Part shown: piece by piece, positions 29,293 to 63,336 of the stretch
Position numbering within the stretch: the stretch's first letter is position 1
Layout of the letters: every line of letters starts with the position of its first letter
NCBI GenBank assembly: GCA_963749445.1
Contig: CAVVMJ010000003.1
Location: 128,715-192,714, forward strand
Reading direction: 5' to 3'
Length of the DNA stretch: 64,000 bases
Source: an uncultured bacterium
Lineage (GTDB): Bacteria > Patescibacteriota > Doudnabacteria > UBA920
Translations under genes and position numbers: made by a program
Notes under the pieces: generated by a model
The model's database searches: none
The model's input: the letters and a program-made list of their open reading frames with translations, nothing else
What the model was told of the DNA's origin: nothing

Positions 29293-29294
29293 TT

Positions 29295-36174: not shown

Positions 36175-36268
36175 GCAATTAACAAGATTGACATGAATGA
36201 ACAAGATTGACAAGATTGCCAACCCAAATTCATGTCAATCATTTAAATCATTTAAATCTTGTTCAATC
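36175..36268. repeat. Family-C AT-rich palindromic element with repeated TTGACA motifs (copy C1).
   Basis: caagattgacatgaatga acaagattgacaagattgccaac ... attcatgtcaatcatttaaatcatttaaatcttg. Confidence 0.65.
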
Positions 36269-36273
36269 GAACT

Positions 36274-36612
36274 ATGTTTTCCAAACAGCATCGCCTTGGC
36301 AAAACCACAGACGTGCAAAAAGTTTTTGCCCAAGGGCGGGCTTTTTTTAACCCCTTGTTTACGATTAAATTTTTGACGCGGCCTAGCCAGCTTCCGCGGT
36401 TTACCGTGGTGGTATCCACTAAAGTTTCCAAGAGCGCGGTTAAACGCAATCGGTTAAAAAGGCTGACGCGGGAGTTTATTCGGATGCGGATGGGAAAATT
36501 TAGGCTCGGTGATTATGTGGTAATTTTAAAACCGGCCGCAGCGAGGCGGGATGAAAAATCGCTGATGATGAGCTTATCCGAACTGTGCCAGAGAGCCAAA
36601 CTGATAATTTAA
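36274..36612 (+). CDS. rnpA: RNase P protein component.
   Basis: Basic ~110-aa protein, KHRLGKT...VSTKVSKSAVKRNRLKR, directly after rpmH. Confidence 0.8.
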   Translation: MFSKQHRLGKTTDVQKVFAQGRAFFNPLFTIKFLTRPSQLPRFTVVVSTKVSKSAVKRNRLKRLTREFIRMRMGKFRLGDYVVILKPAAARRDEKSLMMSLSELCQRAKLII

Positions 36613-36640
36613 CAGTCTTTGAGGGCTTCTCTATGGCGCT

Positions 36641-36747
36641 CCACCCCGACCGACGACGAGTGCGCCCGAGGAGGAATGGAGGGGTCTGTAAAAATAACAG
36701 ATTCCTCGACTCGTCCTCAGCTGCTATTTGGGACTCGCTCGGAATGG
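36641..36747. repeat. Family-D palindromic element (copy D1).
   Basis: ccaccccgaccgacgacgag...gaggaatggaggggtctgt / aacagattcctcgactcg...ctcgctcggaatgg; a related copy is at 63337-63445. Confidence 0.6.
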
Positions 36748-36766
36748 AACGTTAATATTTACCCTT

Positions 36767-37039
36767 ATGAAAAAATTTGTCAGCAATCCAATTAGTCTTT
36801 CTTCCCGCGCGGCAGCCGGGCTGGTTTTTGTTTACCAACGTTCCCTGTCGCCAGATCACAGTTGGTTGGCTGCGCGTTTTCCTTACGGGTTTTGCCGCCA
36901 CTATCCGTCCTGCAGCGAATATTCCCGTCAGAGCCTGCTTAAATTTGGGTTAATAAAAGGTGGGCTGTTATCCGTTAAACGGTTAGCGCGCTGCCATCCT
37001 TGGGCCGAGCCGTCCGTTGACCCGGTTCCGCATTTTTAA
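36767..37039 (+). CDS. yidD: Membrane protein insertion efficiency factor YidD.
   Basis: YQRSLSP...FCRHYPSCSEYS. Confidence 0.75.
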   Translation: MKKFVSNPISLSSRAAAGLVFVYQRSLSPDHSWLAARFPYGFCRHYPSCSEYSRQSLLKFGLIKGGLLSVKRLARCHPWAEPSVDPVPHF

Positions 37040-37052
37040 AAATTGATTTAAT

Positions 37053-37766
37053 ATGTGGCTGCTTACTATTTATCATAATTTCCTTTATCTCCCCCTGCTG
37101 AACCTGCTGGTGTTTTTTTATAACATCATTCCCGGCCATGATATTGGCATAGTGATTATTGTGCTGACAATTGTCATTCGTTTGGCACTGGCCCCGAGCT
37201 TCCATAAATCACTCAAAAGCCAAAAGGCCATGAATGACTTGCAGCCCAAGTTGAACGAATTGCGGAAAAAGCACAAAGAAGATAAGGAAGCCTTGGCTAA
37301 AGCCACTATGGGCCTTTACCGCGAGCACAAAATTAATCCTTTGTCTTCCTGTTTGCCGATTTTAATCCAGTTGCCGATTTTAATCGCGCTGTACCAGGTT
37401 TTCCGTTTGGCGCTCGGCGGGCACGATTTGATGGGGCTTTATTCGTTTGTCAAAAACCCCGGGTTTATTAGCCCAAAGCTGCTCGGTTTGGTGGATCTGT
37501 CCAAGCCCAGTTACGTGTTCGCAATTTTGGCCGGCGCGGCGCAATTTTGGCAGTCAAAATTAATGATGCCCAAGGCCAACTCCGGCCAGGACGCGACAAT
37601 GCGCGCCATGTCCGTGCAGACCACTTATGTTTTGCCCTTTATTAGCGTGATAATCGCCTGGCGTCTGCCTGCGGGCCTGCCGCTTTACTGGATTGTAACT
37701 ACGCTGTTTGCTGTGGGGCAGCAGTATTATATTCTGCGCAAACAGAATCCGACAGCGGCCCAGTAG
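37053..37766 (+). CDS. yidC: Membrane protein insertase YidC (short form).
   Basis: Multi-TM; the conserved YWIVTTLFAVGQQYYI region; lies in the rnpA-yidD-yidC-jag cluster. Confidence 0.8.
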   Translation: MWLLTIYHNFLYLPLLNLLVFFYNIIPGHDIGIVIIVLTIVIRLALAPSFHKSLKSQKAMNDLQPKLNELRKKHKEDKEALAKATMGLYREHKINPLSSCLPILIQLPILIALYQVFRLALGGHDLMGLYSFVKNPGFISPKLLGLVDLSKPSYVFAILAGAAQFWQSKLMMPKANSGQDATMRAMSVQTTYVLPFISVIIAWRLPAGLPLYWIVTTLFAVGQQYYILRKQNPTAAQ

Positions 37767-37835
37767 TGGGTAGTTGGTAGGAGGTAGCCAGCAGTTTGGC
37801 TACCCGCTACTTACTACTAACTACCAGCTAATTTT

Positions 37836-38315
37836 ATGACCGACTACGACAAAATCGAACAGGTAAAAAAAATCATTATTGGGGTGTTGGAAAAAATGGG
37901 GATAGCGGCGGAGGTGGAATTTGAAGAAAGTATTACCAAAGGGCTGATTTTTAACATTTCCTGCCGCGATGCTTTTATGCTCATTGGCCGCGAAGGTTCT
38001 ACCCTGCACGCACTGCAGGTTTTGGTCCAGTCCATTGCCGCGCGCCGGTTTCTTAAAGAGCCCGATGGGCGGATGATGTGGTTTACTTTAGATGTTGACG
38101 ATTACAAAAGAAAGCGTGAATGGTACTTAAAGGAAACGGCCAAGGCGGCTGTTGACCACATAAAAAAAACCGGCCGTGCCGTAAGCCTTGATCCCATGCC
38201 CAATTACGAACGCCGGCTCATCCACGCCTACCTCCAGGAACACTGCCCCGAAGCCGAAAGCTCTTCCATTGGCAACGAACCGTATCGGAAAGTCGTGATA
38301 AGGCTAAAGAGATAA
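37836..38315 (+). CDS. jag: Jag/KhpB-like KH + R3H RNA-binding protein.
   Basis: C-terminal R3H motif ERRLIHAYLQEH; position after yidC. Confidence 0.7.
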   Translation: MTDYDKIEQVKKIIIGVLEKMGIAAEVEFEESITKGLIFNISCRDAFMLIGREGSTLHALQVLVQSIAARRFLKEPDGRMMWFTLDVDDYKRKREWYLKETAKAAVDHIKKTGRAVSLDPMPNYERRLIHAYLQEHCPEAESSSIGNEPYRKVVIRLKR

Positions 38316-38385
38316 ATTCCAAGTTTTAAAAACACCCGAGAGGGTATTTTTTGTAGCGTGCCGATTTATCGGCTGGGCGATGGTT

Positions 38386-39189
38386 TTATTTCAGCCGCTC
38401 TGCTTGTTGCCAGGCGAGTTCAAAAACAATCTTTAAGGAATTAGCAAAGGAGGGATTTTTGATTTCAAAAGCCATCTTTTCCCCGGGCTTAACCAGCACG
38501 CCCATCACAACGTCGTCGTAAATATTCACTTCCGCGGCTGGCGTAAACGGGAATTGTTTTTCCAGCCAGCGGTATTCTGTGCATTTTTGGTAGAGCGGAC
38601 TGTTTTTATAAGTGGTTTCATAAAAATACAAACCGGCTTCATTTTTCATAACCAAAGCTTTTTCTTTTATTCCAAGTTTCGCACGTTCTTTGACGTAGTC
38701 TTTACCAAATTTGTCATAAGCTGATTTTTCTTTTCCGGGCAAGTAAACATTCAAATCCAAAACTGAATAAATTATACTTTTGGATTCCAGCGTGTGCCAA
38801 TAAATATTTTTTATTCCGTCCCAGCCTTCAAAAAATTTAATGACCGGTTTGTTTTCTTTTTTGTATAGTCCTTGAAGATCGGGCAATAACTCTCCAACAT
38901 CCGCCAGGCGCTTTTCCGCCTGGTGTTTCTTATTTTCTAAGTATTGTTTTAACCTGAACGGCGCCTCGGCCACGTATATGGTTTTTTTAGTGCCGAGAGT
39001 TGTGCGGCTGGCTAAGCCGTAAAGCGACAAGCGTTCCAAAATATCATAGCCGGTTGTGCGGTTAAGCGTAGCCGCTTTGCTAATATCACTCACCGTTCCC
39101 TGCCCCAACTCCAACAGCGCCAAATAAACTTTGGTTTCGTTTGGATGTAACCCCAAACTTTGCAGTTGTTCGGCGATTTTGCAATCCAT
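38386..39189 (-). CDS. TrmB-family transcriptional regulator (wHTH + C-terminal domain).
   Basis: KVYLALLELGQGTVSDISKAATLNRTTGYDILERL wHTH. Flanked on both sides by gccgatttatcggc hairpins (38352-38368 and 39258-39275). Confidence 0.55.
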   Translation of the reverse strand: MDCKIAEQLQSLGLHPNETKVYLALLELGQGTVSDISKAATLNRTTGYDILERLSLYGLASRTTLGTKKTIYVAEAPFRLKQYLENKKHQAEKRLADVGELLPDLQGLYKKENKPVIKFFEGWDGIKNIYWHTLESKSIIYSVLDLNVYLPGKEKSAYDKFGKDYVKERAKLGIKEKALVMKNEAGLYFYETTYKNSPLYQKCTEYRWLEKQFPFTPAAEVNIYDDVVMGVLVKPGEKMAFEIKNPSFANSLKIVFELAWQQAERLK

Positions 39190-39456
39190 ATGGGAGAACA
39201 GATAAACACGGATGTAGCGTGCCCATTTATGGGCGGACGATGGATGTGTTTAGTGTAGTTAGCCGATTTATCGGCTGTTATTTGTGTCAAGTCATCCCGA
39301 CAAAATTTGAAAAGTTAAATATAAAAGCCAGAAATAAGCCTAAATACATTATATCATAAGTGGAGCCAAATTGTCAATATGTGATTATTATGGTATATTT
39401 CCCCGTTAAAACAAAAATCCTAAAACGGCACTTTTTGTTTCAACAAGGAGGAGTTC

Positions 39457-39906
39457 ATGAAAAACGTGAAAGTGGTTTTGTTTTGTGAGAGCTCTCAAGG
39501 ATTTGAGGATCTTTTGTGGGGTGACCGTGGATGCCTTCGCGCGGACTACCAACGCCTGTCGGGTGTCGAAGTAGAAGCCCGGGGATTTGGGGGAAATCTG
39601 GTAGATACCAATGGCAAACCCAATGAGAACGGGAAAGCTTTTTTGGAGGCCTGCAAAACTGCGGACGTGCTCGTCACGGACGCTTGGACTGGCACATCGA
39701 TGTACACGAATACCGAGGAACCCTTAGCCAGGATGGCTGAGATGGTGTGGAGAGCGAAAAAGCTCAATCCCCGGCTGGTGGTGTTCGGCGACTTGCTTGA
39801 AGGCGAGCACGAGACAATTCTCCACCAGATGTACGGCGCAACACCGATCAGGCACTGGCGGGACAAGAAGATCATCGAAGCGGTCAAAAAGGCCGCTCTC
39901 ACGTAG
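39457..39906 (+). CDS. Hypothetical Rossmann-like protein in a foreign-looking cassette (possibly nucleoside 2-deoxyribosyltransferase/SLOG-like fold).
   Basis: Strong SD AAGGAGGAG; GC about 55%; alternating beta/alpha pattern VKVVLFCES...ADVLVTDAWTGT...RLVVFGD. Confidence 0.3.
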   Translation: MKNVKVVLFCESSQGFEDLLWGDRGCLRADYQRLSGVEVEARGFGGNLVDTNGKPNENGKAFLEACKTADVLVTDAWTGTSMYTNTEEPLARMAEMVWRAKKLNPRLVVFGDLLEGEHETILHQMYGATPIRHWRDKKIIEAVKKAALT

Positions 39907-40032
39907 TACTTGGCAGGACTAGTGTGTATTTACAATGCATTCGCGCTGCCTTTTTGAGGCTTTGATGAAAATCGAGGCTTCAAAATCGGAAAACACCCGG
40001 CGGGGCGTGAATACGCAAAATTAGGAGGTAAC

Positions 40033-40446
40033 ATGGAAGACGTTGGCACGGTTGGGAGCTGGAACGATGTATCTAAGGCCGCGCAGACGCTCATGCGCAG
40101 GGGCTATATACAGGGAGTGGCAATTGTGTCACTTCAAAAGTTCGGTGAGGGAGAATACGATGCCGTGCGAATTGATGGCAACGGCGCAGGCTATGACGAT
40201 GGCACGCTCGACAAGGTCATGCGGGAAATCCCACAAAAGTTTCCGGATGCCGTGAGTTTCCGGCTCTTCATCGAACGCATGAAGGCGTACGGATCAGGAG
40301 AACCTTGGTATGAGACATTGACGGTAGTTTGCGTGGCCGCAAAGCAGGCGCTTGATACCATTCAGCCGCGAGGACTTCTGCATAAGTCACTGAGGATTAC
40401 ACAGTTTTCGGCGGTCATCGGTTCGTGCGGGTATCTGGGCGATTGA
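40033..40446 (+). CDS. Hypothetical protein, the second gene of the GC-rich cassette.
   Basis: SD TAGGAGGT 5 nt upstream; no recognisable motifs. Confidence 0.3.
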   Translation: MEDVGTVGSWNDVSKAAQTLMRRGYIQGVAIVSLQKFGEGEYDAVRIDGNGAGYDDGTLDKVMREIPQKFPDAVSFRLFIERMKAYGSGEPWYETLTVVCVAAKQALDTIQPRGLLHKSLRITQFSAVIGSCGYLGD

Positions 40447-40490
40447 CATCGGCGATGGCGTGTGCCATCATTCAACGGACCAAATGATAA

Positions 40491-40533
40491 AGGGCGGATA
40501 ACGAAGCATTCGTTCCGCCCCTTTTTATAAAAA
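40491..40533 (+). terminator. Rho-independent terminator.
   Basis: gggcggataacgaagcattcgttccgccc followed by a T5 and an A6 run. Confidence 0.7.
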
Positions 40534-40541
40534 ATTATTTT

Positions 40542-40577
40542 GTCTAACATCATTTCCGGCCGGAAATGATGTTAGAC
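40542..40577. promoter_or_regulatory. Perfect 36-bp palindrome.
   Basis: gtctaacatcatttccgg|ccggaaatgatgttagac. Confidence 0.6.
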
Positions 40578-40581
40578 AAGG

Positions 40582-41847
40582 CTAAATTGCTAGAGAAAGT
40601 ATAATCCAAAATACCATGGCCAAGTCGTTTTTAAAGTAGGGGTTGTCTACTTGGCCTTGGACTAATACTGCGATGAGGAAGAGGGCGATGGATAAGGCAA
40701 TTGTGCGGTTAAAATCTCCAACTACCCCGTCTCGCTTCGCAATCCACCCCTCCTTGGCAGGAGGGGAAGCTCCGCGAAGACCGCGGTAAAGGTAGAGTCC
40801 GATTAGCCCGATTAAACTTATTAGCCCGATTAGTCCGGTTTCCACCCAGAGGTCTAGGAAAATGTTGTGCGGGAAGTTGTGGGTGTCGGTGAGGCCGGGG
40901 TCGGTGTTAAGGGTTGTCCACTGGCGTGAAAAGCCGGTTAAGCCGAGTCCAAAAATCGGCGATTCTTTAACGCCTTTTATGCCGGTATCCCAAAGGGAAA
41001 AGCGGGAGACCGCGGACTTCTCACCGTAAAAAGGCAGGACAAAGCGCCAGCGGAGGTTGGGGATGCAAACGATAACGATAACCATAATGATAACGCCGGC
41101 AAAAATTATTTTGCGGATTTTTTTGTCCGCGGCAAATATCAGGTAAACCAAAACCGCGGCGCCAAGGCCGGCCCAGCCGGCGCGGGAGAGCGATAATAGT
41201 AATCCGGTAGCGCCGATTATCCAAGCAAACATCTTTATCCAATTTTTCCACCCCTCCCTAACCCTCCCCATCAAGGGGAGGGAAAAAGAAGAAAAAATAT
41301 CCGGAATCAAGAAGGCTAAAAGTGGGGCGCACCAGAGGGCGTAAAAGTTCGGGTGGATGAAGAAGCTTAAGGCGCGCTTGGGCTCGTTGCTGTTGCCCCA
41401 CCAAGCTGTCGGCAATCCGATTAATGTAAAGTACTGGAGAATTGCGTAGAGGCCGGTGACTGCGAGGAGAAAGTAAGTAGTTAGTAGTAAGTAGTTAGTA
41501 GCCCGCGGGTATTGCTTGATAATAAATCGGCCGATAAAAAATATAGAAACCGGCTGCAAAAATAACACAATAAACTGGCCGAGTTTGGCGCGGTCAAAGC
41601 CATGGACAAACAAGGAAATTATCCCGGACAGGAAAAACAGACCAACCAAAACCAGGATTTTTTTATCCAAACCCATCAGCGATTGCCAAAATTCCCGTAG
41701 TTGATGTTTGGCCAAAATCCACCCTAAAAAAATCACCCACACTAAAACTACCCACACCATTAAAACGTCTGGGGGAAAGCCAAAAACGTTAAATTTAATA
41801 ACGTAGGTCGGCGTTAGCAGTAAAGTTAGGGCAAGAAGATAAGGCAT
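40582..41847 (-). CDS. O-antigen ligase-like (Wzy_C/WaaL family) polytopic membrane protein. Carries in-frame GC-rich hairpin inserts.
   Basis: LLLSLSRAGWAGLGAAVLV (Wzy_C motif). Hairpins cccctccttggcaggagggg (40773-40815) and ccctccccatcaaggggaggg (41250-41285) fall within loops. Confidence 0.6.
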   Translation of the reverse strand: MPYLLALTLLLTPTYVIKFNVFGFPPDVLMVWVVLVWVIFLGWILAKHQLREFWQSLMGLDKKILVLVGLFFLSGIISLFVHGFDRAKLGQFIVLFLQPVSIFFIGRFIIKQYPRATNYLLLTTYFLLAVTGLYAILQYFTLIGLPTAWWGNSNEPKRALSFFIHPNFYALWCAPLLAFLIPDIFSSFSLPLMGRVREGWKNWIKMFAWIIGATGLLLSLSRAGWAGLGAAVLVYLIFAADKKIRKIIFAGVIIMVIVIVCIPNLRWRFVLPFYGEKSAVSRFSLWDTGIKGVKESPIFGLGLTGFSRQWTTLNTDPGLTDTHNFPHNIFLDLWVETGLIGLISLIGLIGLYLYRGLRGASPPAKEGWIAKRDGVVGDFNRTIALSIALFLIAVLVQGQVDNPYFKNDLAMVFWIILSLAI

Positions 41848-41857
41848 AGTTATTGAG

Positions 41858-41950
41858 CAAGATTTAAAAGATTTAAATGATTGACATGATTAAGAGTTGG
41901 CAATCTTGTCAATTTTGTCATTCATGTCAATCTTGTCAATCAATTTAGGG
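41858..41950. repeat. Family-C palindromic element (copy C2, inverted relative to C1), filling the WaaL-like gene's upstream spacer.
   Basis: Reverse complement reads acaagattgacatgaatgacaaaattgacaagattgccaac...catgtcaatcatttaaatcttttaaatcttg. Confidence 0.65.
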
Positions 41951-44800: not shown

Positions 44801-44869
44801 ATGTGCTCATTATAACTGTTTTCCGGTTTTAAGAAAAATGCTATAATAGATGCAAGTGAACTTTTAATT

Positions 44870-46036: not shown

Positions 46037-46040
46037 ATCA

Positions 46041-46066
46041 AAACCCCTCCACTCGGAGGGGTTTTA
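46041..46066. terminator. Bidirectional terminator hairpin.
   Basis: aaaacccctccactcggaggggtttt. Confidence 0.6.
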
Positions 46067-46113
46067 AATTCAGCGTAAGATCAGCGTTGCAATCAGCGAC
46101 CTATCAGCGGTTT

Positions 46114-46392
46114 TTACACCTGGGCTTCGCCGCCGTCATCATCATCGCCATTCATTTCTTCATCTTTGTCCATTTCTTCGGTCGGAGCGTCGGTTGGGGT
46201 GCCTCCGGCCGCCGGGGTGTCGTCAAAAAACATAAGTTTGGTCTCCTTGGGTTCCACTTTGGGGAACTTGATAGTTAGCTTAAACTTCTGATTTTTCAGA
46301 AGTAAAGTCAGTATACCACGGCGTTTATCGGTGTCCAACCGATATATCCCCAGCCTTAGTTTAAAGTTTTTCGATAGTGAAATCCCGCGCAC
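46114..46392 (-). CDS. Hypothetical protein with an acidic C-terminal tail.
   Basis: ORF with a D/E-rich C-terminus; no recognisable motif. Confidence 0.3.
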   Translation of the reverse strand: MRGISLSKNFKLRLGIYRLDTDKRRGILTLLLKNQKFKLTIKFPKVEPKETKLMFFDDTPAAGGTPTDAPTEEMDKDEEMNGDDDDGGEAQV

Positions 46393-46844
46393 AGCGCTAT
46401 CGCCAGCGCATCGGCCGCATCGTCCGGCTTGGGCACGGATTTTAATTTAAAAGTTTTTTGCACAATATACTGCACCTGTTTTTTTTCGGCTTTGCCGTAG
46501 CCGCAGATAAAACTTTTTACCTGCAGCGGCGTAAATTCCAAAATCGGCAAATGATGCTGCTGCGCAATAAGCAAAACCACCCCCCTGGCTTGGCTAACCG
46601 TCATTACGGTTTTTTGGTTGGTGGTAAAAAATAGTTTTTCTATGCCGACCACGCCGGGTTTGTATTTTTTGATGAGCCGATTTATATCCGCCGCCAAAAT
46701 TGCCAACCGTTCGGCATCGGGCAAAGTTTTTTTAGTTGAAACAATTCCAAAATCAATGAGCCGGAATTCGTCTTTTTTGTTCGTCGAAGATATAATCCCA
46801 AACCCAGTCGTAGCGGTTCCCGGGTCAATTCCAAGAATAGTCAT
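46356..46844 (-). CDS. ruvC: Holliday junction resolvase RuvC.
   Basis: MTILGIDPGTATTGFGII N-terminus. The ORF-track N-terminal extension reads through repeat A2. Confidence 0.8.
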   Translation of the reverse strand: MTILGIDPGTATTGFGIISSTNKKDEFRLIDFGIVSTKKTLPDAERLAILAADINRLIKKYKPGVVGIEKLFFTTNQKTVMTVSQARGVVLLIAQQHHLPILEFTPLQVKSFICGYGKAEKKQVQYIVQKTFKLKSVPKPDDAADALAIALCAGFHYRKTLN

Positions 46845-46936
46845 AAGGTTTATATACGGAGTTTCCTTCCCTCTTTGAGGGAAGGTGGATCGCGCAGCGA
46901 GACAGAAGGGTTGGAGTGTTATCAACCCAATCTCCA

Positions 46937-47000
46937 ACCACCTCCCCCCGCTTCGCGGGGTACTCCTCCTTGAAAAGGAGGAGAGACTCCGCGGTTTTGT
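46937..47000. repeat. Family-A element (copy A2), intergenic.
   Basis: cacctccccccgcttcgcggggtactcctccttgaaaaggaggagagactccgcggtttt. Confidence 0.7.
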
Positions 47001-47006
47001 TTGGTT

Positions 47007-47723
47007 TTATAAATTGGCTGATGTGTGAACAGCGATAACGTCTTCGTCATTCTCCAGCTCCGCGAACAGCGCGTCTATTTTAGGTTTTTGATCTTCAGAT
47101 AAATCCACGCCTTGCGAACTTTCTTTTATAATATCGGCGCGCGCGATTTTGGCTCCGGCCTGCGCCAATGCGGTTTTTATTTTTTGCAAATCTGCCGGCT
47201 GCGTGTAGACTTCCAGCCCTTCATCAGACTCCCGAACATCATCAGCGCCGGTATCAATGGCCGCCATCTCAATGTCTGATATTTTGGCATCGCGCTCCAC
47301 TAAAATTTGGCCTTTGGCGTGAAATTGCCAGGCCACCGACCCCTGGCTGCCCAAATTGCCGCCGTGTTTGGAAAAAATGTGCTTTATGTCGTTAGTAGTG
47401 CGGTTGGGGTTGTCTGTGGCCGCTTCCACCAAAAATGCCGTACCGAACGGGCCGTAACCTTCGTAAACCACTTCCTTGATGTTTCCCGCCGTGCCGCCCG
47501 TAGCCGCTTTTATAGCGCGTTCAATGTTGTCATTCGGCATTCCCTGGTCTTTGGCGTAATCTACCGCGCTTTTTAATTTGAAGTTGGAAGCCGGGTCGCC
47601 CCCGCCGCCCTCTTTTACGGCGATGGAAATCTTTTTTCCCATTTTGGAAAACAGCAGGCCGCGCTTTTGGTCCAAAACGCCCTTGGTTCTTTTAATTTGC
47701 GACCATTTAGAATGTCCGGACAT
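47007..47723 (-). CDS. yebC: YebC/PmpR family DNA-binding regulator.
   Basis: MSGHSKWSQIKRTKG N-terminus. Confidence 0.85.
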   Translation of the reverse strand: MSGHSKWSQIKRTKGVLDQKRGLLFSKMGKKISIAVKEGGGGDPASNFKLKSAVDYAKDQGMPNDNIERAIKAATGGTAGNIKEVVYEGYGPFGTAFLVEAATDNPNRTTNDIKHIFSKHGGNLGSQGSVAWQFHAKGQILVERDAKISDIEMAAIDTGADDVRESDEGLEVYTQPADLQKIKTALAQAGAKIARADIIKESSQGVDLSEDQKPKIDALFAELENDEDVIAVHTSANL

Positions 47724-47764
47724 AGATATTGGATGTGCTGATGGTTATTGATGTGTTTGGTATA

Positions 47765-47818
47765 GAGGCACGCCGTGGCGTGCCTGATTGTCGGCATGCC
47801 AAGGCATGCCGCTACAGT
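47765..47818. repeat. Family-I tandem-hairpin element (copy I1).
   Basis: ggcacgccgtggcgtgcc + ggcatgccaaggcatgcc; an inverted copy lies at 60480-60545. Confidence 0.6.
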
Positions 47819-48571
47819 TTATTTAAACGATACCAAAACCGTAACTTCGCCTTTTATTGATGGTTTTTCTTTAAGTTTTTCCAAAACTTCGCCCGCGGAG
47901 CCGCGGATGAATTCTTCGTGCATTTTGGTGAGTTCGCGCGCAACAACGACTTGCGATCTCGGATAAGCGTTGGTAACGTATCCCAAAGTTTTTAAAATCC
48001 GTTCCGGGGATTCGTAAAAAATTGCCGTGGCTTCAGCATCGGCCGCTGCTTGCAAAGCCGATAAAGTTTTGGCCGCGGTTTTTTGCAAAAATCCCAAAAA
48101 CATGAACCGGTCGGTCGGCAGGCCGGAAGCCGAGAGCGCGGCAACGGCGGCATTGGCCCCCGGGATGGGAACCACTTGAATATTTTCTTTGGCGCATTCC
48201 CGTACTAATCTGAATCCCGGATCGGAAATCCCCGGCGTCCCTGCGTCGGTGATTAAGCATCCATCTTCTTTTTTTAGTCTTCGCGCAAGTTCTTTGACGA
48301 TTTGCTGTTCGTTGAATTCCGCAAATTGGACAATAGGTTTAGCTGAAATTGCGAGGAGTGCAGCCGACGAAGCAATCCCGTTCTTATTTGGGATTGTCGC
48401 GCCCTCGGCTGCACTCGGGCTCGCAATTTCCAAATGCTCGATGTATTGCAATAGCCTTCTGCTGTACCCCGGGTTTTCGGCCATCACAAAACCACACGCC
48501 TTTAAAGTTTCAACGGCGCGCAGGGTAATGTCTCCCATGTTGCCTATCGGAGTTGCTACTATGTAGAGCAT
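47819..48571 (-). CDS. rsmI: 16S rRNA 2'-O-methyltransferase RsmI, with a ~29-aa in-frame insertion encoded by repeat B1.
   Basis: MLYIVATPIGNMGDITLRAVETL and DAGTPGISDPG; extra segment EIASPSAAEGATIPNKNGIASSAALLAIS relative to the typical RsmI layout. Confidence 0.8.
   Translation of the reverse strand: MLYIVATPIGNMGDITLRAVETLKACGFVMAENPGYSRRLLQYIEHLEIASPSAAEGATIPNKNGIASSAALLAISAKPIVQFAEFNEQQIVKELARRLKKEDGCLITDAGTPGISDPGFRLVRECAKENIQVVPIPGANAAVAALSASGLPTDRFMFLGFLQKTAAKTLSALQAAADAEATAIFYESPERILKTLGYVTNAYPRSQVVVARELTKMHEEFIRGSAGEVLEKLKEKPSIKGEVTVLVSFK
48345..48430. repeat. Family-B palindromic element (copy B1) inside the rsmI coding sequence.
   Basis: gaaattgcgaggagtgcagccgacgaagcaatccc...gggattg...tcggctgcactcgggctcgcaatttc; a near-perfect hairpin. 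Confidence 0.7.
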
Positions 48572-48579
48572 GGAGTGTA

Positions 48580-48690
48580 TTTGGTTATAGGGTGTGGCGG
48601 CCGGTACAGTATTAGGGTTTGGGTATTAAGTCACTTACACCCAAAGACCTACAACTACACTGGCCGCTATACCTTATAACCTATTACAGA
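48580..48690. repeat. Family-F/G palindromic element (copy G1).
   Basis: ggttatagggtgtggcggccggtacagtattagggtttgggtattaagtcacttaca...ctacactggccgctatacc; about 80% identity to the inverted copy G2. Confidence 0.65.
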
Positions 48691-48962
48691 TTTTTATCAG
48701 GAGCCTCTAATCCAAAAGCCTCTTCCAGAAAATCGTATTCCGCCTTGAGTTTTTCCCGGGCTTCTTCCATTTCTTCTTTTTCCTCGCCTTCGGCTTCAAA
48801 CCATTGGTCGTAGCCGGCCTTGAGCTCGTCGTCAATTTCCTGAAGGCGCGCGTAAGCCTCGGCCTCGCTTTGCGGACCGGAGTCCTGCCATTCTTCGTAG
48901 GTCATCCCCAGGCGCTTTTTGTACTTTTCCTGGTAGAGGTCTTTTATGTCGTCTTGATCCAT
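48684..48962 (-). CDS. Hypothetical acidic protein.
   Basis: ORF only. Confidence 0.3.
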   Translation of the reverse strand: MDQDDIKDLYQEKYKKRLGMTYEEWQDSGPQSEAEAYARLQEIDDELKAGYDQWFEAEGEEKEEMEEAREKLKAEYDFLEEAFGLEAPDKNL

Positions 48963-49118
48963 TTACCCGCCTAAATTTTGCCCTAAAAATTGGGCAAGAT
49001 TAATTATTTAGATAACGGTTGTTAATCAAAAGTTTTAGATTCCACGCTGCAAAATTTCGGCAGGTTAGTCTATTCTACTAAAATAATTATGCAGCATTTT
49101 TTCAATCTGGTTCCGTCC

Positions 49119-49325
49119 CTACCCGGTTTTTAGCCATTGTTCCCGCACAAAGGCATCATGTTTGTCTAAAAAAGCTTCGTAATATATTAAACGGAAAGGT
49201 TTCCTGTTCTTTGTTGATTCTATACCACCTTTATTATGTAATGCAAATCGCTGCTTTAGGTTATTTGTACAGCCGATATATAGCCTGGTATCTTTTAAAC
49301 TTTGTAAGATATATACATAGTGCAT
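49119..49325 (-). CDS. GIY-YIG nuclease family protein (YhbQ-like), possibly C-terminally truncated.
   Basis: YVYILQS...LYIGCTNNLKQRFALH. Confidence 0.55.
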   Translation of the reverse strand: MHYVYILQSLKDTRLYIGCTNNLKQRFALHNKGGIESTKNRKPFRLIYYEAFLDKHDAFVREQWLKTG

Positions 49326-49798
49326 AAGCTAACTTATTTTATCGCAAATTTTGCCCGGCGACAAATTAACCCGCCGAAACTTTACGATGGATTTGTGGAA
49401 GCGAGGGAGAGTTAACAAATTTTTGATGCGGGTTTACCCACCGAAACTTTGCACAATTTATTAAAATTATTTGGTTGTTCAGACAAAATTATCTACTTAG
49501 ACTACCTAAACAACCCTCGCAAAGTTTAGGTGGGTAAAGTAAAAACCCCAATCTTGATAGCCCGCCCCGTCAGGGGAATTTGGGCATTGAAAGGGGTCTT
49601 TAAGAAAAGCTAGAAGAAGCTTGTGAGCTATAAGAAGTATCGAAATAAGCCTTATAGCCAACCGCCCTAAAAGTAGGGGTGGTAATCCCGATTTATCGGG
49701 ACAATTGGTTGATAAATTGTTTTTGTTTTTGTTTCTTCTTATGAAGAACTCACTTTTCTATAGGTATTATAGCAGATTTTTTGGAGGTTGTCTAGAGG

Positions 49799-50989
49799 CT
49801 AGTTTGTTTCCGCCAAAGCGCCGCGTCCTGTATTGATGACAATTACCTTACTATTTTTAGCTACCAAACCTTCCCGCCAACGTTTCATGTATAATGCGAG
49901 CCCCGCAGCAGCAGAAGGTTCGGTTGCAATACCAAGCGGCTCGCCTTTCTTTTTTAGAAGGTCATAAGCTTCTTTTATTTCGGCTTCTGATACTTTGTAA
50001 ACGCCTGTTTCAAGATGGGTGTACCCATCTTGTTTAAGTGAAGTAAGTCGATTTGTATCATAATGGATGTAGGGTTTTACAGGGGCTGCAAGTTTGTCGG
50101 CGATGCTGGGGAAACTTTCAGGTTCCGCCCCTAGGATTTTAACGTTACCGACCCGGAAAGATTCAGATTTAATCTGGTTCGCTATTTCTGACTCATCTGA
50201 GGTGTCCAATAAAAATTGCCGATCGACTAAACCTTCAAAGGTCGCCCCGGATCCATACGAATCATATATCTCATTTGGCTGTTCTAAAAATATTTCTTCA
50301 CCCAATACGTAATAGAACATTCTCCAAGGTCTTTCCGGGTCGTCTTCTTGGTTGGCACTGGTTAAGTCAAAGCCGGCATCGTTGTTGGTAAGTTCCATAA
50401 TTTGGCCTGGCTCCAGAGGGCTTTCTTGGGCTGGCATGTCAGTAAAGGCGTTTGAAGAAAGATCAGTTAGATATAAATCTGCCCGCATGGTTTTTAGTTT
50501 TATCAAAGTTTCGGGGGATACGTGTTTATCTAGCAATAGCTTTGGCGGAGGTAATTCAAAAGCTTCAAATGCGTTTGCCAGCGCTCTGCCGGCATTACCG
50601 GCGGTGATGATGGAAAAACGGGGCAGGTATTTAGTTTTGAGTTTTTCCTCATAACTTGGATCGTTGGCTAAGGTTTCCAGATAGAAGCGGGCTTTGTCTC
50701 GGTAAACACCAGCGCAGGCTCGGGCCATCCTATCTTTCATAGTTCCAGTAGGATTTACCGATTGGTCCCCTTCATTTTTTATAAATATTTTGCCAAAGCC
50801 ATCTTGAGACAGATCAAGTTCAACCAGAGGGGTTTTTGTCCCTTCCGATTCCAGGCCAACAGGGATTTCTTTAGCCCATCTTTGTGCCAGCTCCCTGGAC
50901 CAGAATTGTGGATAAGGAATTTCTTGCACAATTTCGCGTTTTGATTGCCAATTGGCTTCGCCAATTGGAAAATCTTTTATTTCTGTCAT
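49799..50989 (-). CDS. PLP-dependent enzyme of the tryptophan-synthase-beta/threonine-synthase fold, with a large internal insertion.
   Basis: NPTGTMKDRMA (PLP-lysine motif) and ITAGNAGRALA (Gly-rich loop). Confidence 0.5.
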   Translation of the reverse strand: MTEIKDFPIGEANWQSKREIVQEIPYPQFWSRELAQRWAKEIPVGLESEGTKTPLVELDLSQDGFGKIFIKNEGDQSVNPTGTMKDRMARACAGVYRDKARFYLETLANDPSYEEKLKTKYLPRFSIITAGNAGRALANAFEAFELPPPKLLLDKHVSPETLIKLKTMRADLYLTDLSSNAFTDMPAQESPLEPGQIMELTNNDAGFDLTSANQEDDPERPWRMFYYVLGEEIFLEQPNEIYDSYGSGATFEGLVDRQFLLDTSDESEIANQIKSESFRVGNVKILGAEPESFPSIADKLAAPVKPYIHYDTNRLTSLKQDGYTHLETGVYKVSEAEIKEAYDLLKKKGEPLGIATEPSAAAGLALYMKRWREGLVAKNSKVIVINTGRGALAETN

Positions 50990-50993
50990 AAAG

Positions 50994-51539
50994 TTAGAGT
51001 TTTTTATAGTATAGCAACAAACTGCCATGTTTGTTGAGCTTTTTTACGGAGATAAGTTTGAATTTTGTATTTAGATCAATATCGCTCGCAAACAAATCTA
51101 TCCCTCCCCCAAAAACGATTGGCTCAATGGTTAAATAAAGTTCATTAAGCAAATTGTTTTGCAAACAATAAGTATAGGTTTGCGCTCCGCCGAGGATGGC
51201 GACGGTTTTGTATTTTAGTTCGCGGATGAGTTTTTTTATATCTGATTTTTGCGGGTTGACATATAAAAGGTTTGTTTGCAACCTCTCTGCCCTTCGGGCA
51301 TCTTCCCTCGCCAGGGGAGAAGGCTCCGCGGTTTTGCTAAGAACTATGCAGTTGCGCTTGGATAGCGGCTTTATTGCCGTCTTGTAAGTGTTGTTGCCAA
51401 CGATTATGCAGTCGCATTTGTCCAGCAGCGCGCGCATAAAGAGCTTGTCTTCTTTGCTGGTCCAATCACTCGGATGGTTTGGGCCTTTGGCGATTTTGCC
51501 GTCCAGGGTTATGGCGGCAATGGCGATGTATTTGGACAT
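50994..51539 (-). CDS. RibD C-terminal/DHFR-like reductase domain protein, carrying an in-frame Family-A-like insert.
   Basis: IAIAAITLDGKIAKGP. The insert encodes EPSPLAREDARRAER (51292-51338). Confidence 0.5.
   Translation of the reverse strand: MSKYIAIAAITLDGKIAKGPNHPSDWTSKEDKLFMRALLDKCDCIIVGNNTYKTAIKPLSKRNCIVLSKTAEPSPLAREDARRAERLQTNLLYVNPQKSDIKKLIRELKYKTVAILGGAQTYTYCLQNNLLNELYLTIEPIVFGGGIDLFASDIDLNTKFKLISVKKLNKHGSLLLYYKKL
51292..51338. repeat. Family-A-like element (copy A3) inside a CDS.
   Basis: cctctctgcccttcgggcatcttccctcgccaggggagaaggctccgcggtttt; parallels the A1/A2 architecture. Confidence 0.5.
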
Positions 51540-51540
51540 G

Positions 51541-51650
51541 GTAATTGGTTATTGGGTTTGGCGGCCAGTATGGGTGTAGGTTTTTGGTTGTAAGTGACTT
51601 AATACCAAAACCTTAAGACCGTACAGGCCGCCACACCTTATACCCTAAGA
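51541..51650. repeat. Family-F/G element (copy G2, inverted).
   Basis: Reverse complement reads tataaggtgtggcggcctgtacggtcttaaggttttggtattaagtcacttaca... Confidence 0.65.
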
Positions 51651-52370
51651 CTTTTTAAAGATTTTTAATAGAGGGTAATATAAGTCTTTCTTTGGTTCAA
51701 TCACCAGCTTGCGATGGGTGCTGTGATTGGTAAACTTGATAAATTTCGCGCCGCGCAAAACCATCATCGGGGTTTTTTCGTTCCCCTCCCCCATCAGCAA
51801 GACAGCCATGTTGGATATGCTGTCCACGATGTTGCTTTGGGTGTATTTTAACTTGCGGCCGAAAATATCTTTTTTGCCGCGGTAGTCAAATAATGGCTCT
51901 AATCCGAAAAACCCTATGGATATCCCCTGCGTCCCCCACCGAAGCGGTGTGGTGTGGCTGTCGGTAATTGCCACCGCAAGTTTTTTTATTTTAAACTTCT
52001 TTTTTAAATATTTACAAATTTTTTTGGCCGCCTGGGTGGAATTCTTTGGCCAAAGGATGTCGTAGCCATTGCCGTTGCTCTCGTCAATCCCGGCTGAAGG
52101 AATTAGGGTGTAATCTTTAATTGTCAAAACTATATCCAATCCGTTAAGCACCCTTTTTGGCAGCGAATAATCCGCCTCTTGTTTTATAAGTTTTAGTTTT
52201 TCCCGATGATCATCTAATTTAACACAACGTCCTTGATGTATGGCCAAAATTTTGGACGTAACAAACAAAACGTCACCTTCTTTTAAGTGCGGCAGATGTT
52301 TGTCCATCAACCCAAAAATATCATCCTTGGGCGGTAAAAACTCCCGGGTTTTTATTGGCATAAATTGCAT
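51645..52370 (-). CDS. CofE-like (F420-0:gamma-glutamyl ligase family) protein.
   Basis: The SAGIDESNGNG motif and its length. Confidence 0.45.
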   Translation of the reverse strand: MQFMPIKTREFLPPKDDIFGLMDKHLPHLKEGDVLFVTSKILAIHQGRCVKLDDHREKLKLIKQEADYSLPKRVLNGLDIVLTIKDYTLIPSAGIDESNGNGYDILWPKNSTQAAKKICKYLKKKFKIKKLAVAITDSHTTPLRWGTQGISIGFFGLEPLFDYRGKKDIFGRKLKYTQSNIVDSISNMAVLLMGEGNEKTPMMVLRGAKFIKFTNHSTHRKLVIEPKKDLYYPLLKIFKKS

Positions 52371-52432
52371 ATATCGTATTTTATCAGAACTGTTGATACT
52401 TTAACAGCTTTAAATTATAATAAGGAAGATTT

Positions 52433-52507
52433 GGGCGCATAGCTCAGCGGTAGAGCAATCGTCTTATACACGATCGGCCCTAGGTTCGAATCCTAGTGCG
52501 CCCACCA
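52433..52507 (+). tRNA. tRNA with anticodon UAU (Ile, AUA-decoding), with encoded CCA.
   Basis: Cloverleaf folded by hand: acceptor gggcgca/tgcgccc, D arm gctc-agcggta-gagc, anticodon arm atcgt-cTTATac-acgat, T arm ctagg-ttcgaat-cctag. A terminator hairpin follows at 52511-52540. Confidence 0.8.
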
Positions 52508-52547
52508 AAAAACTCCGGCAGGTACCGGAGTTTTCGTATGACAGGAT

Positions 52548-52850
52548 TTATTTGAAAAATATATACCAGTCGGGGAATCTAACGAAGTCATAGAGCATGG
52601 CTGCCAGCAGGAAAGAAACTATCATTAGCACGGAAGGATGGGTTAGTCTTTGGGTTTTTACAGCAACGGCCATGGTTATGATCAATAGCACCAAATAAAC
52701 AAGCCAGTGGTGCAGGTGTACGTTGTAGCCGGATAGCTTAACAATTAAACTTGGCGTAATGGTTGCAATATTTTTATAAGGTGTGGTGCCCAGCTTTTCC
52801 CAAGTTAAGCCGCTGATAAGTCCGATAAAGATTGCAAGCAATTGGTACAT
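52548..52850 (-). CDS. Small membrane protein.
   Basis: Hydrophobic 100-aa ORF. Confidence 0.35.
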   Translation of the reverse strand: MYQLLAIFIGLISGLTWEKLGTTPYKNIATITPSLIVKLSGYNVHLHHWLVYLVLLIITMAVAVKTQRLTHPSVLMIVSFLLAAMLYDFVRFPDWYIFFK

Positions 52851-52854
52851 AGTG

Positions 52855-55323
52855 CTAAATTATTGTCGCGCTAGCCACTTTATCTCCTTCTTCCAGCCTC
52901 ATTACCCGCACGCCTTGCGTAGCGCGGCCTAAGGTGGAGACGGAGTTTAAGGGCAGGCGGATGGTTTGGCCGGATTTGGAAATTATGACCAGGTCGTGTT
53001 CTTCCGAGGAGTTTAAAATATACATAGAAACGATTTTTCCGGTCTTGGGCGTAACTTTAAGCGTCTTAATCCCGCTGCCGGCGCGTTTTTGGATTTTGTA
53101 ATAAGCGGCTTCGGTTTTTTTGCCCAGGCCGTTTTCCGTAACCACCAAAACTTCCAAATTTTTAACGTCAACCGATTTTTTAATTACGTCCATACTAATA
53201 ATCAGGTCGCCTTTTTTCAGCCGCATGCCGGTAACGCCACTGGCGTTTCTGCCCATGGCGCGCACGTCTTTTTCGTTAAAGCGGATGGCCTGGCCGTTTT
53301 CCGTGGACAGCATAATTTGGTCTTCGCCCGAGCTTTCTTCCACCCACTTGAGCTCGTCGTCGCCTTTTAAGGAGATGGCAATCATCCCGCTTTTGCGGAC
53401 TTTGGCGAATTCTTCCAAGGACGTTTTTTTAATCAGGCCTTTTTTGGTGGCCATGACCAAAAATTTGGCCGCGGTTTTTTTGCCCATGGTCAATACCGCG
53501 GTGGCGACTTCCCCGCCGCCCAGCTGCAAAAAGTTCACCAAAGCCTGGCCTTTGGACACGCGCGAGCCTTCCGGCAGTTCGTAAACTTTGGTCAAAAACA
53601 CGCGGCCTTTGTTGGTAAAGAACAAAATGTCGTCGTGGGTGTTGGAAGATAATCATTTTTTCCACCACGTCTTCTTCCTTTAAGGTCTGGCCGATTACGC
53701 CCTTGCCGCCGCGCGACTGGCTTTTGTAGGTGTCCGGCGCCAGGCGCTTGACATAGCCGGATTTGGTGATGGTAATAATTACGTTTTCTTCGGGAATTAA
53801 ATCTTCGGCGCAAAAGGTGCCGACCGCGCTTTTGACGACTGGGTTTTGCGCTCGTCGCCAAAGCGCGCTTTCATATCTTCCACTTCTTTTTTGATGATCC
53901 CCAAAATTTTCTTTTTGGACTGTAAAATGCCTTCCAGTTCCTCAATCAACATATTTCTTTTCCTTGAGCTCGTCGTCAATTTTTTTGCGCTCCAGCCCGG
54001 CCAGGGTCTGCAAACGCATTTCCAAAATCGCGTCGGCCTGGATGTCGGTGAATTTGAATTTTTTGATTAAATTAACCTTGGCTTCTTCCTTGGTCGGGCA
54101 TTTTGTTGATGGTGTTGATGACCTCGTCAATGTGGTCCAAAGCTTTTTTTAAGCCTTCCAAAATATGCGCGCGCTCTTTGGCTTTTTTGAGCTCAAATTC
54201 CGTGCGGCGGCGGATGACGATTTGCCGGTGCTCCAGATATTTTTCCAGCACGGTTTTTAAGTTCAGCACGTGCGGCTGCAATGCCGTCCACCAAAGCCAG
54301 CATGTTCATGTGGAAAGTTTCCTGCAGCTGGGTGTAGGAAAACAGCTGGTTTAAGATTTTGTTCGGCATGGCGTCTTTTTTAAGGTCAACCACAATTCTG
54401 ACACCGTCTTTGTCGCTCTCGTCGCGCACGTCCCTGATGCCTTCAATTTTTTTGTCGCGCACCAGTTCCGCGATTTTTTCCAAGAGGGTGGCTTTGTTGA
54501 CGCGGTACGGGATTTCATGGACCAAAATCCTAAAGCCGCCGGTTTTGGTTTCCACAATTTCGGTTTTGGCGCGCATGACCATGCTGCCCTTGCCCGTGGC
54601 ATAAGCGTTTTTGATGGCCGCGACATCATAAATAATGCCGCCGGTGGGGAAATCCGGACCTTTGATGAATTCCATTAAGTCTTCGCTGGCGACTTCGGGA
54701 TCATCAATCAATTTAACAATGGCGTCGCAGACTTCGGTTAAATTATGGGGAGGGATATCGGTTGCCATGCCCACGGCAATGCCTAGAGTGCCGTTTAAAA
54801 GCAGATTGGGCAGTTTGCCGGGCAAAACGAATGGTTCTTTGCGCGTGGCGTCATAGTTGTCGCGCCAGTCCACGGTTTCCTTATCTAGATCCACCAATAA
54901 TTCTTCGGCCAAGGCTGACATCCGCGCTTCGGTATAACGCATGGCCGCGGCGCCGTCGCCATCCATACTGCCAAAATTTCCCTGCCCTTCAATTAACGGA
55001 TAGCGCAAAGAAAAGGTCTGCGCCATATGTACCATACTGTCGTACACGGCCATATCGCCGTGCGGGTGGTACTTGCCGAGCACATCGCCGACTACGGCCG
55101 CGGATTTGCGGAATTTGACGTTGTGGCGCAGTCCCATTTCGTGCATCACATACAAAATGCGGCGGTGCACGGGCTTAAGCCCGTCCCTTACGTCGGGCAG
55201 GGCGCGGGAGACAATTACGCTCATGGCGTAGTCCAAATAGGACTCCTGCATTTCCCGTTCCAAAAAGCGCGGCTTAACTTCGCCGACTTCGCTGGTTACG
55301 GGTTTTGATGCGTCTTTGGGCAT
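52855..55323 (-). CDS. gyrA: DNA gyrase subunit A, fragmented by at least 4 apparent frameshifts between about 53600 and 54300.
   Basis: N-terminus [33 protein letters not shown]-terminal beta-pinwheel repeats continue in other frames. Confidence 0.8.
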
Positions 55324-55336
55324 AAGGGAATTGAGC

Positions 55337-55445
55337 AAAATTAAATAAAATTGACATAATTGAACATAATTGACGAATTTATAATCTGCGGTTTGGCAAT
55401 TATGGCAATTATTTAAATTATGTCAATTTTGTCATTTCTTGTAAT
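55337..55445. repeat. Family-C-like AT-rich palindromic element (copy C3).
   Basis: attgacataattgaacataattgacgaattt...ttggcaattatggcaattatttaaattatgtcaattttgtcat. Confidence 0.55.
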
Positions 55446-60545: not shown

Positions 60546-60546
60546 C

Positions 60547-63311: not shown

Positions 63312-63336
63312 TTTTTTTGGTTGCACTTTTTTTGTA

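Follow-up and report, generated by a model that had tools for sequence, protein, structure and literature searches.

Genomes of the candidate phyla radiation (CPR; Patescibacteria) are usually regarded as streamlined and poor in mobile DNA. What, then, are the short palindromes that lie between and within the genes of a 64-kb stretch of one such genome, and how did they come to be there? The stretch, which we call the window (contig CAVVMJ010000003.1, positions 128,715 to 192,714; window coordinates are used throughout), is the replication-origin neighbourhood (dnaA/oriC) of a Candidatus Doudnabacteria (Patescibacteria/CPR) genome. An initial annotation had described several distinct, dispersed families of palindromes resembling repetitive extragenic palindromes (REPs) or the small transposable elements with inverted repeats known as MITEs, present at an unusual density, and this core description is supported by empty sites, by further contigs and by a transposase. 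We find that the window holds at least eight families of small hairpin-forming mobile repeats, and that at least one of them has a matching transposase, a REP-associated tyrosine transposase (RAYT). The reading that we favour, with a probability of about 0.75, is that a guild of small mobile elements, which are non-coding and form hairpins, has colonised the tiny spacers and some tolerant gene loops of a CPR genome.

The repeats were assessed by comparing the window with itself, by a repeat finder and by pattern searches with shuffled controls. Every family of the initial annotation (C, D, F/G, H, I and a short hairpin) was recovered by self-comparison where it had been placed, and further copies were found, namely a family Q with three copies, a third copy of family A at 40713-40776, and lone long palindromes. 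The named elements total ~2.4 kb, corresponding to ~4% of the window and to about one quarter of its ~9.4 kb of non-coding DNA, a high density for a genome of roughly 1 Mb. Among the 39 spacers of foldable size, in any orientation, 25 fold far better than their shuffles (z <= -3). The claim that most spacers between same-strand genes are filled by such repeats has to be reduced: about half of them hold a named element (~16 of the 30 that are at least 40 nt long), not most.

The short hairpin (ccgatttatcgg / GCCGATTTATCGGC), here called family s, is a GTAG-tagged REP. REPs of this type consist of the tag, a stem of 6-13 bp and a loop of 2-3 nt, and occur as dimers (PMC3733652). The pattern GTAGNNNSCCSATTTATSGGS matches the window at 38353, 39214 and 39255, where 0.00 matches are expected, and these three good units read TGTAG-NNN-GCC[G/C]ATTTAT[C/G]GGC. 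The first (GTAGCGTGCCGATTTATCGGC, 38353..38373, + strand) has the GTAG tag, 3 nt and then the hairpin, and is located where jag and a trmB-like gene converge, in the spacer that separates them. The other two stand in tandem at 39214..39275 (+ strand), with stems GCCCAT..ATGGGC (39214-39234) and GCCGAT..ATCGGC (39255-39275), and a degenerate hairpin without the GTAG tag (CCCGATTTATCGGG) is found at 49687..49700 (+ strand). The swap of G-C to C-G between the tandem units is a compensatory change that is also seen in units from metagenomes. Scanning with TGTAGNNNGCCSATTTATSGGCTG yielded at least 120 metagenome contigs (704 kb in all, median GC 0.447) with at least 192 family s units. In the contigs listed, the variable stem pair (position 4) is G-C in 113 of 192 units, C-G in 78 and mismatched in 1, the scan pattern having permitted all four base combinations at that pair. 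The GTAG tag stands at -7..-4 in 191 of these 192 units, ~120 of which were picked by a pattern requiring the tag and ~70 without that requirement, and in all three good window units. Adjacent units form inverted dimers with the tags outside in 42 of 45 pairs, which is the arrangement of REP doublets forming hairpins (REPINs). Compensatory changes thus show that the predicted hairpin of family s is conserved.

The association with a RAYT gene that the initial annotation had raised was found for family s and, in other phyla, for the hairpin type of family I. Using phmmer with RAYT seeds, we found open reading frames (ORFs) of 137-139 aa in two of the metagenome contigs listed, L193 and L218; a regular expression for the HUH/Y motifs alone overlooked most RAYT ORFs, and phmmer with three seed sequences was needed. 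Both ORFs carry the motifs MPNH[IV]HIIFIL and NYYEH...NNP (HUH and Y), score 32.9 (L193) and 32.3 bits (L218) against the Pfam family Y1_Tnp, for which the cutoff is 23, and have family s dimers on both sides. They belong with 158 related protein clusters, some of which are named RayT (JGI) or 'transposase [Candidatus Doudnabacteria bacterium]' (NCBI). A further RAYT, P0147 (137 aa), is encoded on a contig (L245, 3569-4088) from Logan run ERR10755942, the same run that holds 99.98%-identical copies of the window. It carries a precomputed Y1_Tnp hit, and family s units flank its ORF on both sides, identical at 21 of 21 positions to the window units at 38353-38373 and 39214-39234. This RAYT most probably lies on another contig of the window's own genome; the window and this 4.9-kb contig hold 4 and 3 family s units, respectively, together with two family I dimers. 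Family s therefore has the features of a REP and a RAYT gene flanked by its cognate REPs, and P0147 would be the enzyme that mobilises it. The P0147 gene is located between purC and a purB-like gene. The arrangement of RAYT and purB is also present in L193, and in L013 a REP dimer lies upstream of the same purB-like gene, which suggests that the purC-purB RAYT locus is conserved and vertically inherited. Many contigs bearing the RAYT gene are shorter than 2 kb.

Family I, with its GGCAYGCC hairpin, is a second GTAG REP. In the self-comparison 47763-47816 matched 60484-60541 at 81% (E 1e-5), and the unit pattern TAGNGGCAYGCCNNGGCRTGCC has six matches in the window against 0.00 expected. Each of the two loci is an inverted dimer built as GTAG-n-GGCAYGCCnnGGCRTGCC ... 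CTAC, with stems of 8-9 bp and loops of 2 nt, and the tag is GTAG in three of the four units and ATAG in the fourth. The first dimer (I1, 47763..47816), in the spacer between rsmI and yebC, is made of two units in inverted orientation, ATAG-a-GGCACGCCgtGGCGTGCC and GGCATGCCaaGGCATGCC-g-CTAC, whose tags face outwards; the second (I2, 60484..60543) reads GTAG-t-GGCATGCCggGGCATGC, then 13 nt, then GGCACGCCacGGCGTGCC-t-CTAC.

This second REP type reaches well beyond the CPR. In a collection of species-representative genomes, the matches listed for the unit pattern cover more than 117 loci and come from at least 15 phyla, where we estimate that ~17 matches would arise by chance in 596 Gb at equal base frequencies. 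The matches listed resemble each other beyond the pattern itself (consensus GTAGGGGCACGCCATGGCGTGCCCCTAC) and often number several per metagenome-assembled genome; the cross-phylum form of the hairpin is GTAGGGGCACGCC..GGCGTGCCCCTAC, its unit also being written GTAGGGGCACGCCNNGGCGTGCCCCTAC. Hosts among them are mostly Terriglobia/Acidobacteriota, joined by Chloroflexota, Sumerlaeota, Chlorobiaceae, Gemmatimonadales, Omnitrophota, Melainabacteria, Aquificaceae and Bacteroidia, and further by Oscillospiraceae, Planctomycetota, Atribacterota, Hydrogenedentota, Pseudomonadota and Patescibacteria. Seven loci from other phyla (within L002-L118) have a RAYT-like ORF within the same 8 kb as the hairpins, two of these ORFs being confirmed by Pfam; the ORF of L118 has the hairpins as its immediate neighbours. 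No family I-associated RAYT was found in CPR contigs. Family I units do stand beside family s units in the related CPR contigs L132 and L242. The window units may be homologous to the acidobacterial ones or may have converged on the same form.

Families s and I would most likely be copied as single-stranded hairpins by a RAYT, an HUH/Y1 transposase. We propose this because of the established biochemistry of TnpA(REP), which recognises the GTAG plus the hairpin (PMC3479197, PMC8266576).

How the long families (C, D, F, Q and A; 60-150 nt) behave is best seen when the window is set beside the syntenic stretch around the origin in four related members of the Doudnabacteria (L120, L122/L123, L124). 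The spacer between rpmH and rnpA is 10-23 nt in these relatives and 104 nt in the window, where element C1 (36171..36274) fills it. That between PBP1A and wzy is 0-14 nt (L120, L122, L124) against 97 nt with C2 (41848..41944), which fills the space from the PBP1A stop codon to the wzy start codon. Between rnpA and yidD the relatives range from an overlap to 17 nt and the window has 158 nt with D1 (36635..36755). Between ruvB and an ORF of 70 aa (orf70) they range from an overlap to 29 nt, against 108 nt filled by F1 (28856..28963); between orf70 and a bPH-domain gene there is 1 nt in L122 and L124 and ~33 nt in L120, against 118 nt filled by F2 (29177..29294). The spacers of rsmI-yebC (29 nt in L122, 95 nt in the window with I1) and of yebC-ruvC (76 nt in relatives, 168 nt in the window with A2, region 46857..46999) are likewise longer. 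The repeat makes up the extra DNA and is absent in the relatives, and C1, C2, D1, F1 and F2 are therefore lineage-specific insertions. In the relatives' syntenic loci no repeat family gave a significant match, the single significant hit there being to a lone terminator-like palindrome (P4, 13027-13060).

Target-site duplications, a mark for which the initial annotation had suggested looking, are seen neither at the filled/empty pairs of C1, C2 and D1 nor in the flanks of nine D copies. Nor was a parent insertion sequence found, in the sense of matching ends 0.4-4 kb apart enclosing a transposase, in ~1.6 Mb of window and loci, a small sample of the clade. The sole pair of D ends, in L173, was considered as such a parent and rejected as two separate elements. 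The label MITE/REP-like is thus apt in its REP part, for families s and I, but less so as a strict MITE label for the long families, for which neither target-site duplication nor parent insertion sequence was found.

Closer relatives show turnover at the same spacers. Contigs L180 and L182 (~70-84% nucleotide identity) are syntenic with the window at 46.3-49.2 kb and 53.7-63.0 kb. In the yebC-ruvC spacer both the window and L180 have an A element; in the rsmI-yebC spacer the window has the family I dimer I1 and L180 a family s-type dimer. An F-like, AT-rich element of L180 occupies the place of window copy F3 (48572..48683), and before gyrA, at the position of C3 (55339..55431), L182 likewise has a C element. 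Since the long families are inserted in either orientation, without duplication and at recurring spacer hot spots, hairpin-dependent, duplication-free movement is the most likely mode for C, D, F, Q and A. We see an even chance that a RAYT takes part in it.

Some copies lie within genes and leave the reading frame open, as in wzy, in rsmI and in the tgt gene of L173, which holds a D copy in frame. Relative to three orthologues, a protein alignment shows two lineage-specific in-frame insertions in wzy, of 19 aa and 8 aa; the former is the family A-like copy at 40713..40776 and the latter a small hairpin at 41262-41282. In rsmI, family Q copy Q3 (48348..48427) is in frame. The same codon position of this gene (~residues 44-82) holds Q3 in the window (~86 nt, 48342-48433) and a different cassette of ~165 nt in L180 (~750-915), so that it looks like an intragenic insertion hot spot. 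Relative to the RsmI structure 5hw4 the insertion is ~30 aa (query residues 43-83 against chain residues 45-55). Family A copy A1, accompanied by two more GC-rich hairpins (764..917), lies within the ORF of a polA-like 5'-3' exonuclease gene; its intragenic status is judged from the continuity of the ORF, because a PDB search with the polA-linker ORF gave no match.

The long families differ in their make-up. Family C is AT-rich, and its copies at 36178-36276 and 41845-41940 matched at 89% over 99 nt (E 3e-23), the copy at 55347-55430 being recovered as a self-palindrome (E 3e-8). Its arms are built of 3-5 phased 9-10-nt TTGACA units (AAGATTGACA / TGTCAATCTT in C1), and within any one copy both arms vary together. 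In eight of ten copies the element ends 4-12 nt ahead of a start codon, and C3 lies directly upstream of that of gyrA. Promoter-like sites aimed at the downstream gene score 10-11 of 12, with TG, in C2 and C3; that of C2 points at wzy, and C3 has four such sites on the minus strand facing gyrA, the best scoring 11 of 12 with TG. C1 scores poorly. Judged by these motifs, family C may be a portable promoter and leader.

Family D (36639-36750 against 63334-63447, inverted, 66% over 128 nt, E 1e-5) comprises D1, an imperfect palindrome of ~118 nt with the ends CCATTCCGAGCGAG..CTCGGTCGGGATGG, and D2 (63330..63450). D-like hairpins are also present in two acidobacterial loci, and a scan of viral contigs with a family D 19-mer gave 0 hits. 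Family F/G was recovered at 28836-28963, 29160-29286, 48574-48690 and 51540-51667 (E 1e-11 to 3e-23); F3 has a predicted RNA fold of -58 kcal/mol (z -11), and F4 (51540..51644) is by sequence in the opposite orientation to F3. The 15 nt upstream of F1 (28841-28855) and of F2 (29162-29176) are identical (AAACCCTACTTCAGT) and encode the last residues (TLLQ) of both ruvB and orf70. The element, or conversion between the neighbours F1 and F2, may have rewritten both C-termini. Family Q consists of Q1 (57033..57113), a AATTGCGAGGAG...CTCGCAATT hairpin upstream of rpsA, Q2 (19085..19170) and Q3. Three long palindromes stand alone: P1 (40521-40599), terminator-like with a perfect 19-bp stem in a convergent spacer; P2 (55636-55758), AT-rich and 123 nt long, with a related copy in metagenome contig L155; and P3 (31839-31945), 107 nt long between dciA and recF.

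Family H (20836-20869 against 22696-22729, 94% over 34 nt, E 9e-5) fits an ordinary module of gene 3' ends, mainly a terminator plus an AT-rich tandem repeat, better than it fits a REP. In copy H1 (20810..20869, - strand), tandem (ATTGAAAG)n units come before a hairpin that resembles a terminator and has a T run, and H2 (22603..22729, - strand) is a module of the same type with a nested GC-rich hairpin element (~22635-22695) that recurs elsewhere. In both copies the AT-rich (ATTGAAAG)n units precede and promoter-like sites follow.

An orientation rule, by which all seven C and F copies fold better antisense to their flanking genes, was considered and rejected as compositional skew, because F3 and F4 are opposite by sequence and the effect tracks the G/T-rich leading strand on each side of the origin; C1, adjacent to the origin, is the exception to this leading-strand trend.

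Could the hairpins instead be regulatory structures of the host (terminators, attenuators, mRNA stabilisers or protein-binding sites) that arose and were kept in place? Most of them do stand between same-strand genes and fold strongly, family H and P1 resemble intrinsic terminators, the promoter-like boxes of family C face the downstream gene, and A and C elements are retained at orthologous places in L180 and L182. We nevertheless think this explanation quite improbable, because other Doudnabacteria lack hairpins in the same spacers, where the genes simply abut, and close relatives have different families in one spacer. F3 and F4 are oppositely oriented between same-strand genes, and some copies lie in frame within coding sequence. 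The make-up of an intrinsic terminator, a GC-rich hairpin with a T run, was seen only in H1, H2, P1, one family s unit and a hairpin at 46038-46067, and in the terminator scan no T run followed the copies of C, D, F, Q or I. With Rfam at its gathering thresholds, the sole hit in the window was a tRNA, and no repeat family was matched. The main rival as regards the movement of the long families is that a resident DDE transposase, such as the IS256/Mutator-type one at 30441-31384, moves C, D, F, Q and A in trans as classical MITEs, which would be unrelated to the RAYT. Their size of 60-150 nt and their inverted ends would suit it, as would the fragment of an IS256-family transposase in the window, and a GTAG tag is not evident on D, Q, A and C. 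That reading is unlikely all the same: at the three comparable filled/empty sites no duplication is seen, no longer element with the same ends occurs in the ~1.6 Mb, the entire element is palindromic instead of having short inverted ends that enclose unrelated DNA, and the window transposase is just a fragment.

Two further explanations bear on the repeats as such. The families might be local duplications or gene-conversion products of this region, as the initial annotation would have had it if copy numbers did not exceed 2-4 genome-wide, and F1 and F2 are indeed 324 nt apart and have their upstream flank in common. Copies lie up to 46 kb apart, though, and other samples hold these families too, on many contigs that are unrelated to one another. 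A blastn search of the 704 kb from related contigs gave further sites of C (10), D (10), A (14), Q (8), F (3) and H (2), beside the family s units counted above, and several families co-occur on single contigs, as in L177 (C, D, F), L215 (C, D, Q) and L234 (C, F, Q). Because they recur on many related contigs, families C, D, F, Q and A are dispersed in the clade, as are s and H across related CPR contigs, and local duplication, already contradicted, is very improbable. Errors of long-read assembly might also have created the repeats, and several frameshift-split genes in the window do suggest indel errors. This we find scarcely credible, because independent short-read contigs from run ERR10755942 reproduce the repeats: L001, 99.98% identical to the window with one indel in 5,366 nt, spans C1 and D1, and L119, placed by gene coordinates, spans F3, F4 and the hairpin at 49687. 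The repeats are thus not assembly artefacts.

Several points weigh against colonisation by mobile elements served by a RAYT. Each family has 2-4 copies in the 64 kb, no more, and the further copies in metagenomes derive from several related populations, not from one genome. The RAYT ORFs of L193 and L218 score 76.6 and 75.9 bits against the NCBIfam model NF047646 (REP-associated tyrosine transposase), just under its curated cutoff of 80. The window itself has no RAYT or other intact transposase, and tblastn of the RAYT against it found no remnant. Membership of L245 in the window genome is deduced from the shared run, the identical REPs and the source pattern, not from assembly linkage. The family s units of the window are a singleton and a head-to-tail pair, unlike the usual inverted dimer. 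For C, D, F, Q and A, in which no tag, target-site duplication or parent element was found, mobilisation is conjecture.

Families s and I compare closely with the REP/REPIN-RAYT systems of Escherichia coli, Pseudomonas and Stenotrophomonas (PMC3733652, PMC3116915, PMC3479197, PMC6006769). As in those systems, a terminal GTAG stands by a short GC-rich stem-loop with a loop of 2-4 nt, stems change in a compensatory manner, inverted dimers have their tags outside, the units are mainly extragenic between same-strand or convergent genes, and cognate REPs stand on either side of the RAYT gene. Motifs of the RAYT found here (NH[IV]H, WQ, Y..NNP) resemble those of subclass 2.4 of PMC6006769. Unlike the known systems, the host is a CPR bacterium of roughly 1 Mb, the RAYT is very short (137 aa), and two REP types reside together with several longer palindromic families. 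The family I hairpin is common to many phyla; REPIN-RAYT pairs, by contrast, have been described as specific to a lineage and passed on vertically (bioRxiv 10.1101/2021.07.10.451892).

The in-frame palindromes in housekeeping genes of a reduced genome recall Rickettsia palindromic elements (RPEs; PMC10969869) and intragenic REPs (PMC3733652). The RPE-like cases are wzy, rsmI, the polA-like gene and, in a relative, tgt, with 8-30 aa added in tolerant loops. The likeness is one of insertion pattern: unlike RPEs, the same families are mostly intergenic here, and different cassettes occupy one codon position in related genomes. Family C resembles the Correia/NEMIS elements of Neisseria and promoter-bearing MITEs (PMC10969869) in being an inverted repeat of ~100 nt upstream of genes and in carrying sigma-70-like -35 boxes, that is, predicted promoters. 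Unlike Correia/NEMIS, its arms are tandem 9-10-nt TTGACA units, and no TA or other target-site duplication is seen. The REP/RAYT surveys PMC3733652 and PMC6006769 do not cover CPR, and a full-text literature search linking REP or RAYT with CPR found nothing relevant. These are thus elements of known kinds (REP/REPIN-RAYT, MITE-like palindromes and RPE-like insertions) in a lineage for which we found no description of them.

As for the gene setting, dnaA lies at 34412-35758 on the minus strand, with dnaN and recF, and rpmH, rnpA, yidD, yidC and jag diverge from them. We identify the window as the origin region from this expected gene order (dnaA-dnaN-recF and rpmH-rnpA-yidD-yidC-jag); the cumulative GC skew turns at ~30-34 kb. 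The nearest relatives of DnaA are ~81% identical and are named Candidatus Doudnabacteria or Patescibacteria. GC content ranges over 0.42-0.54 across the window, and its value of ~0.47 compares with 0.36-0.43 in the syntenic regions of related Doudnabacteria (L120-L124). The tRNA-Ile gene (52433-52507) has the unusual anticodon TAT. Giant ORFs lie at 4863-11525 (2,220 aa) and 13112-18928 (1,938 aa), the second having internal repeats of 200-225 nt at 14466-17144. A stand-alone GIY-YIG nuclease ORF of 68 aa (49119-49325) stands in 1.1 kb that are rich in repeats and hold few other genes. A small family of phased 11-nt 'ATCAGCG' repeats lies beside hairpins in three spacers (33121-33147, 46092-46118 and 58495-58521).

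The C-terminal half of the IS256/Mutator-family transposase (Pfam PF00872) is spread over two ORFs (30441-31384), which are probably a decayed insertion sequence; a database look-up of the fragment returned no record. Short-read contig L001 stops exactly at window position 31386. The frameshift-split genes are recF (31964-33045), gyrA (52855-55338), two Orn/DAP decarboxylase genes (59059-61612) and the polA-like gene (671-1831). The splits are probably long-read assembly indel errors, not pseudogenes, because L001, whose sole difference from the window is one indel, has recF intact. Within gyrA, the closest relative, L182, has ~1.3 kb of extra sequence absent from the window (8839-10172; window junction 54933/54934) that could be an intein, an intron or another insertion.

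A much wider proposal can be framed, which we hold to be decidedly unlikely: that a CPR clade keeps a community of palindromic replicators, in which one minimal 137-aa RAYT (or a second) moves several unrelated families that expand spacers, provide promoters and add peptide loops to the products of essential genes, and in which the GTAG-GGCAYGCC hairpin passes horizontally from phylum to phylum, perhaps by exchange of CPR epibionts with hosts such as Acidobacteriota. If true, such cross-phylum exchange of REPs would contradict the current picture of strictly vertical, lineage-specific REPIN-RAYT pairs.

For the Doudnabacteria lineage, the findings describe a genome in which palindromic repeats make up about one quarter of the non-coding DNA of the window, spacers within operons that once measured a few bases now reach ~100 nt, housekeeping proteins have repeat-encoded loops, and the conserved site between purC and purB holds a very small RAYT. 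When such genomes are assembled from short reads, the repeats may be one cause of breaks, and they can give rise to spurious small ORFs. They are also usable as strain-typing markers, and together with their RAYT they offer a compact system for studies of RAYT specificity.

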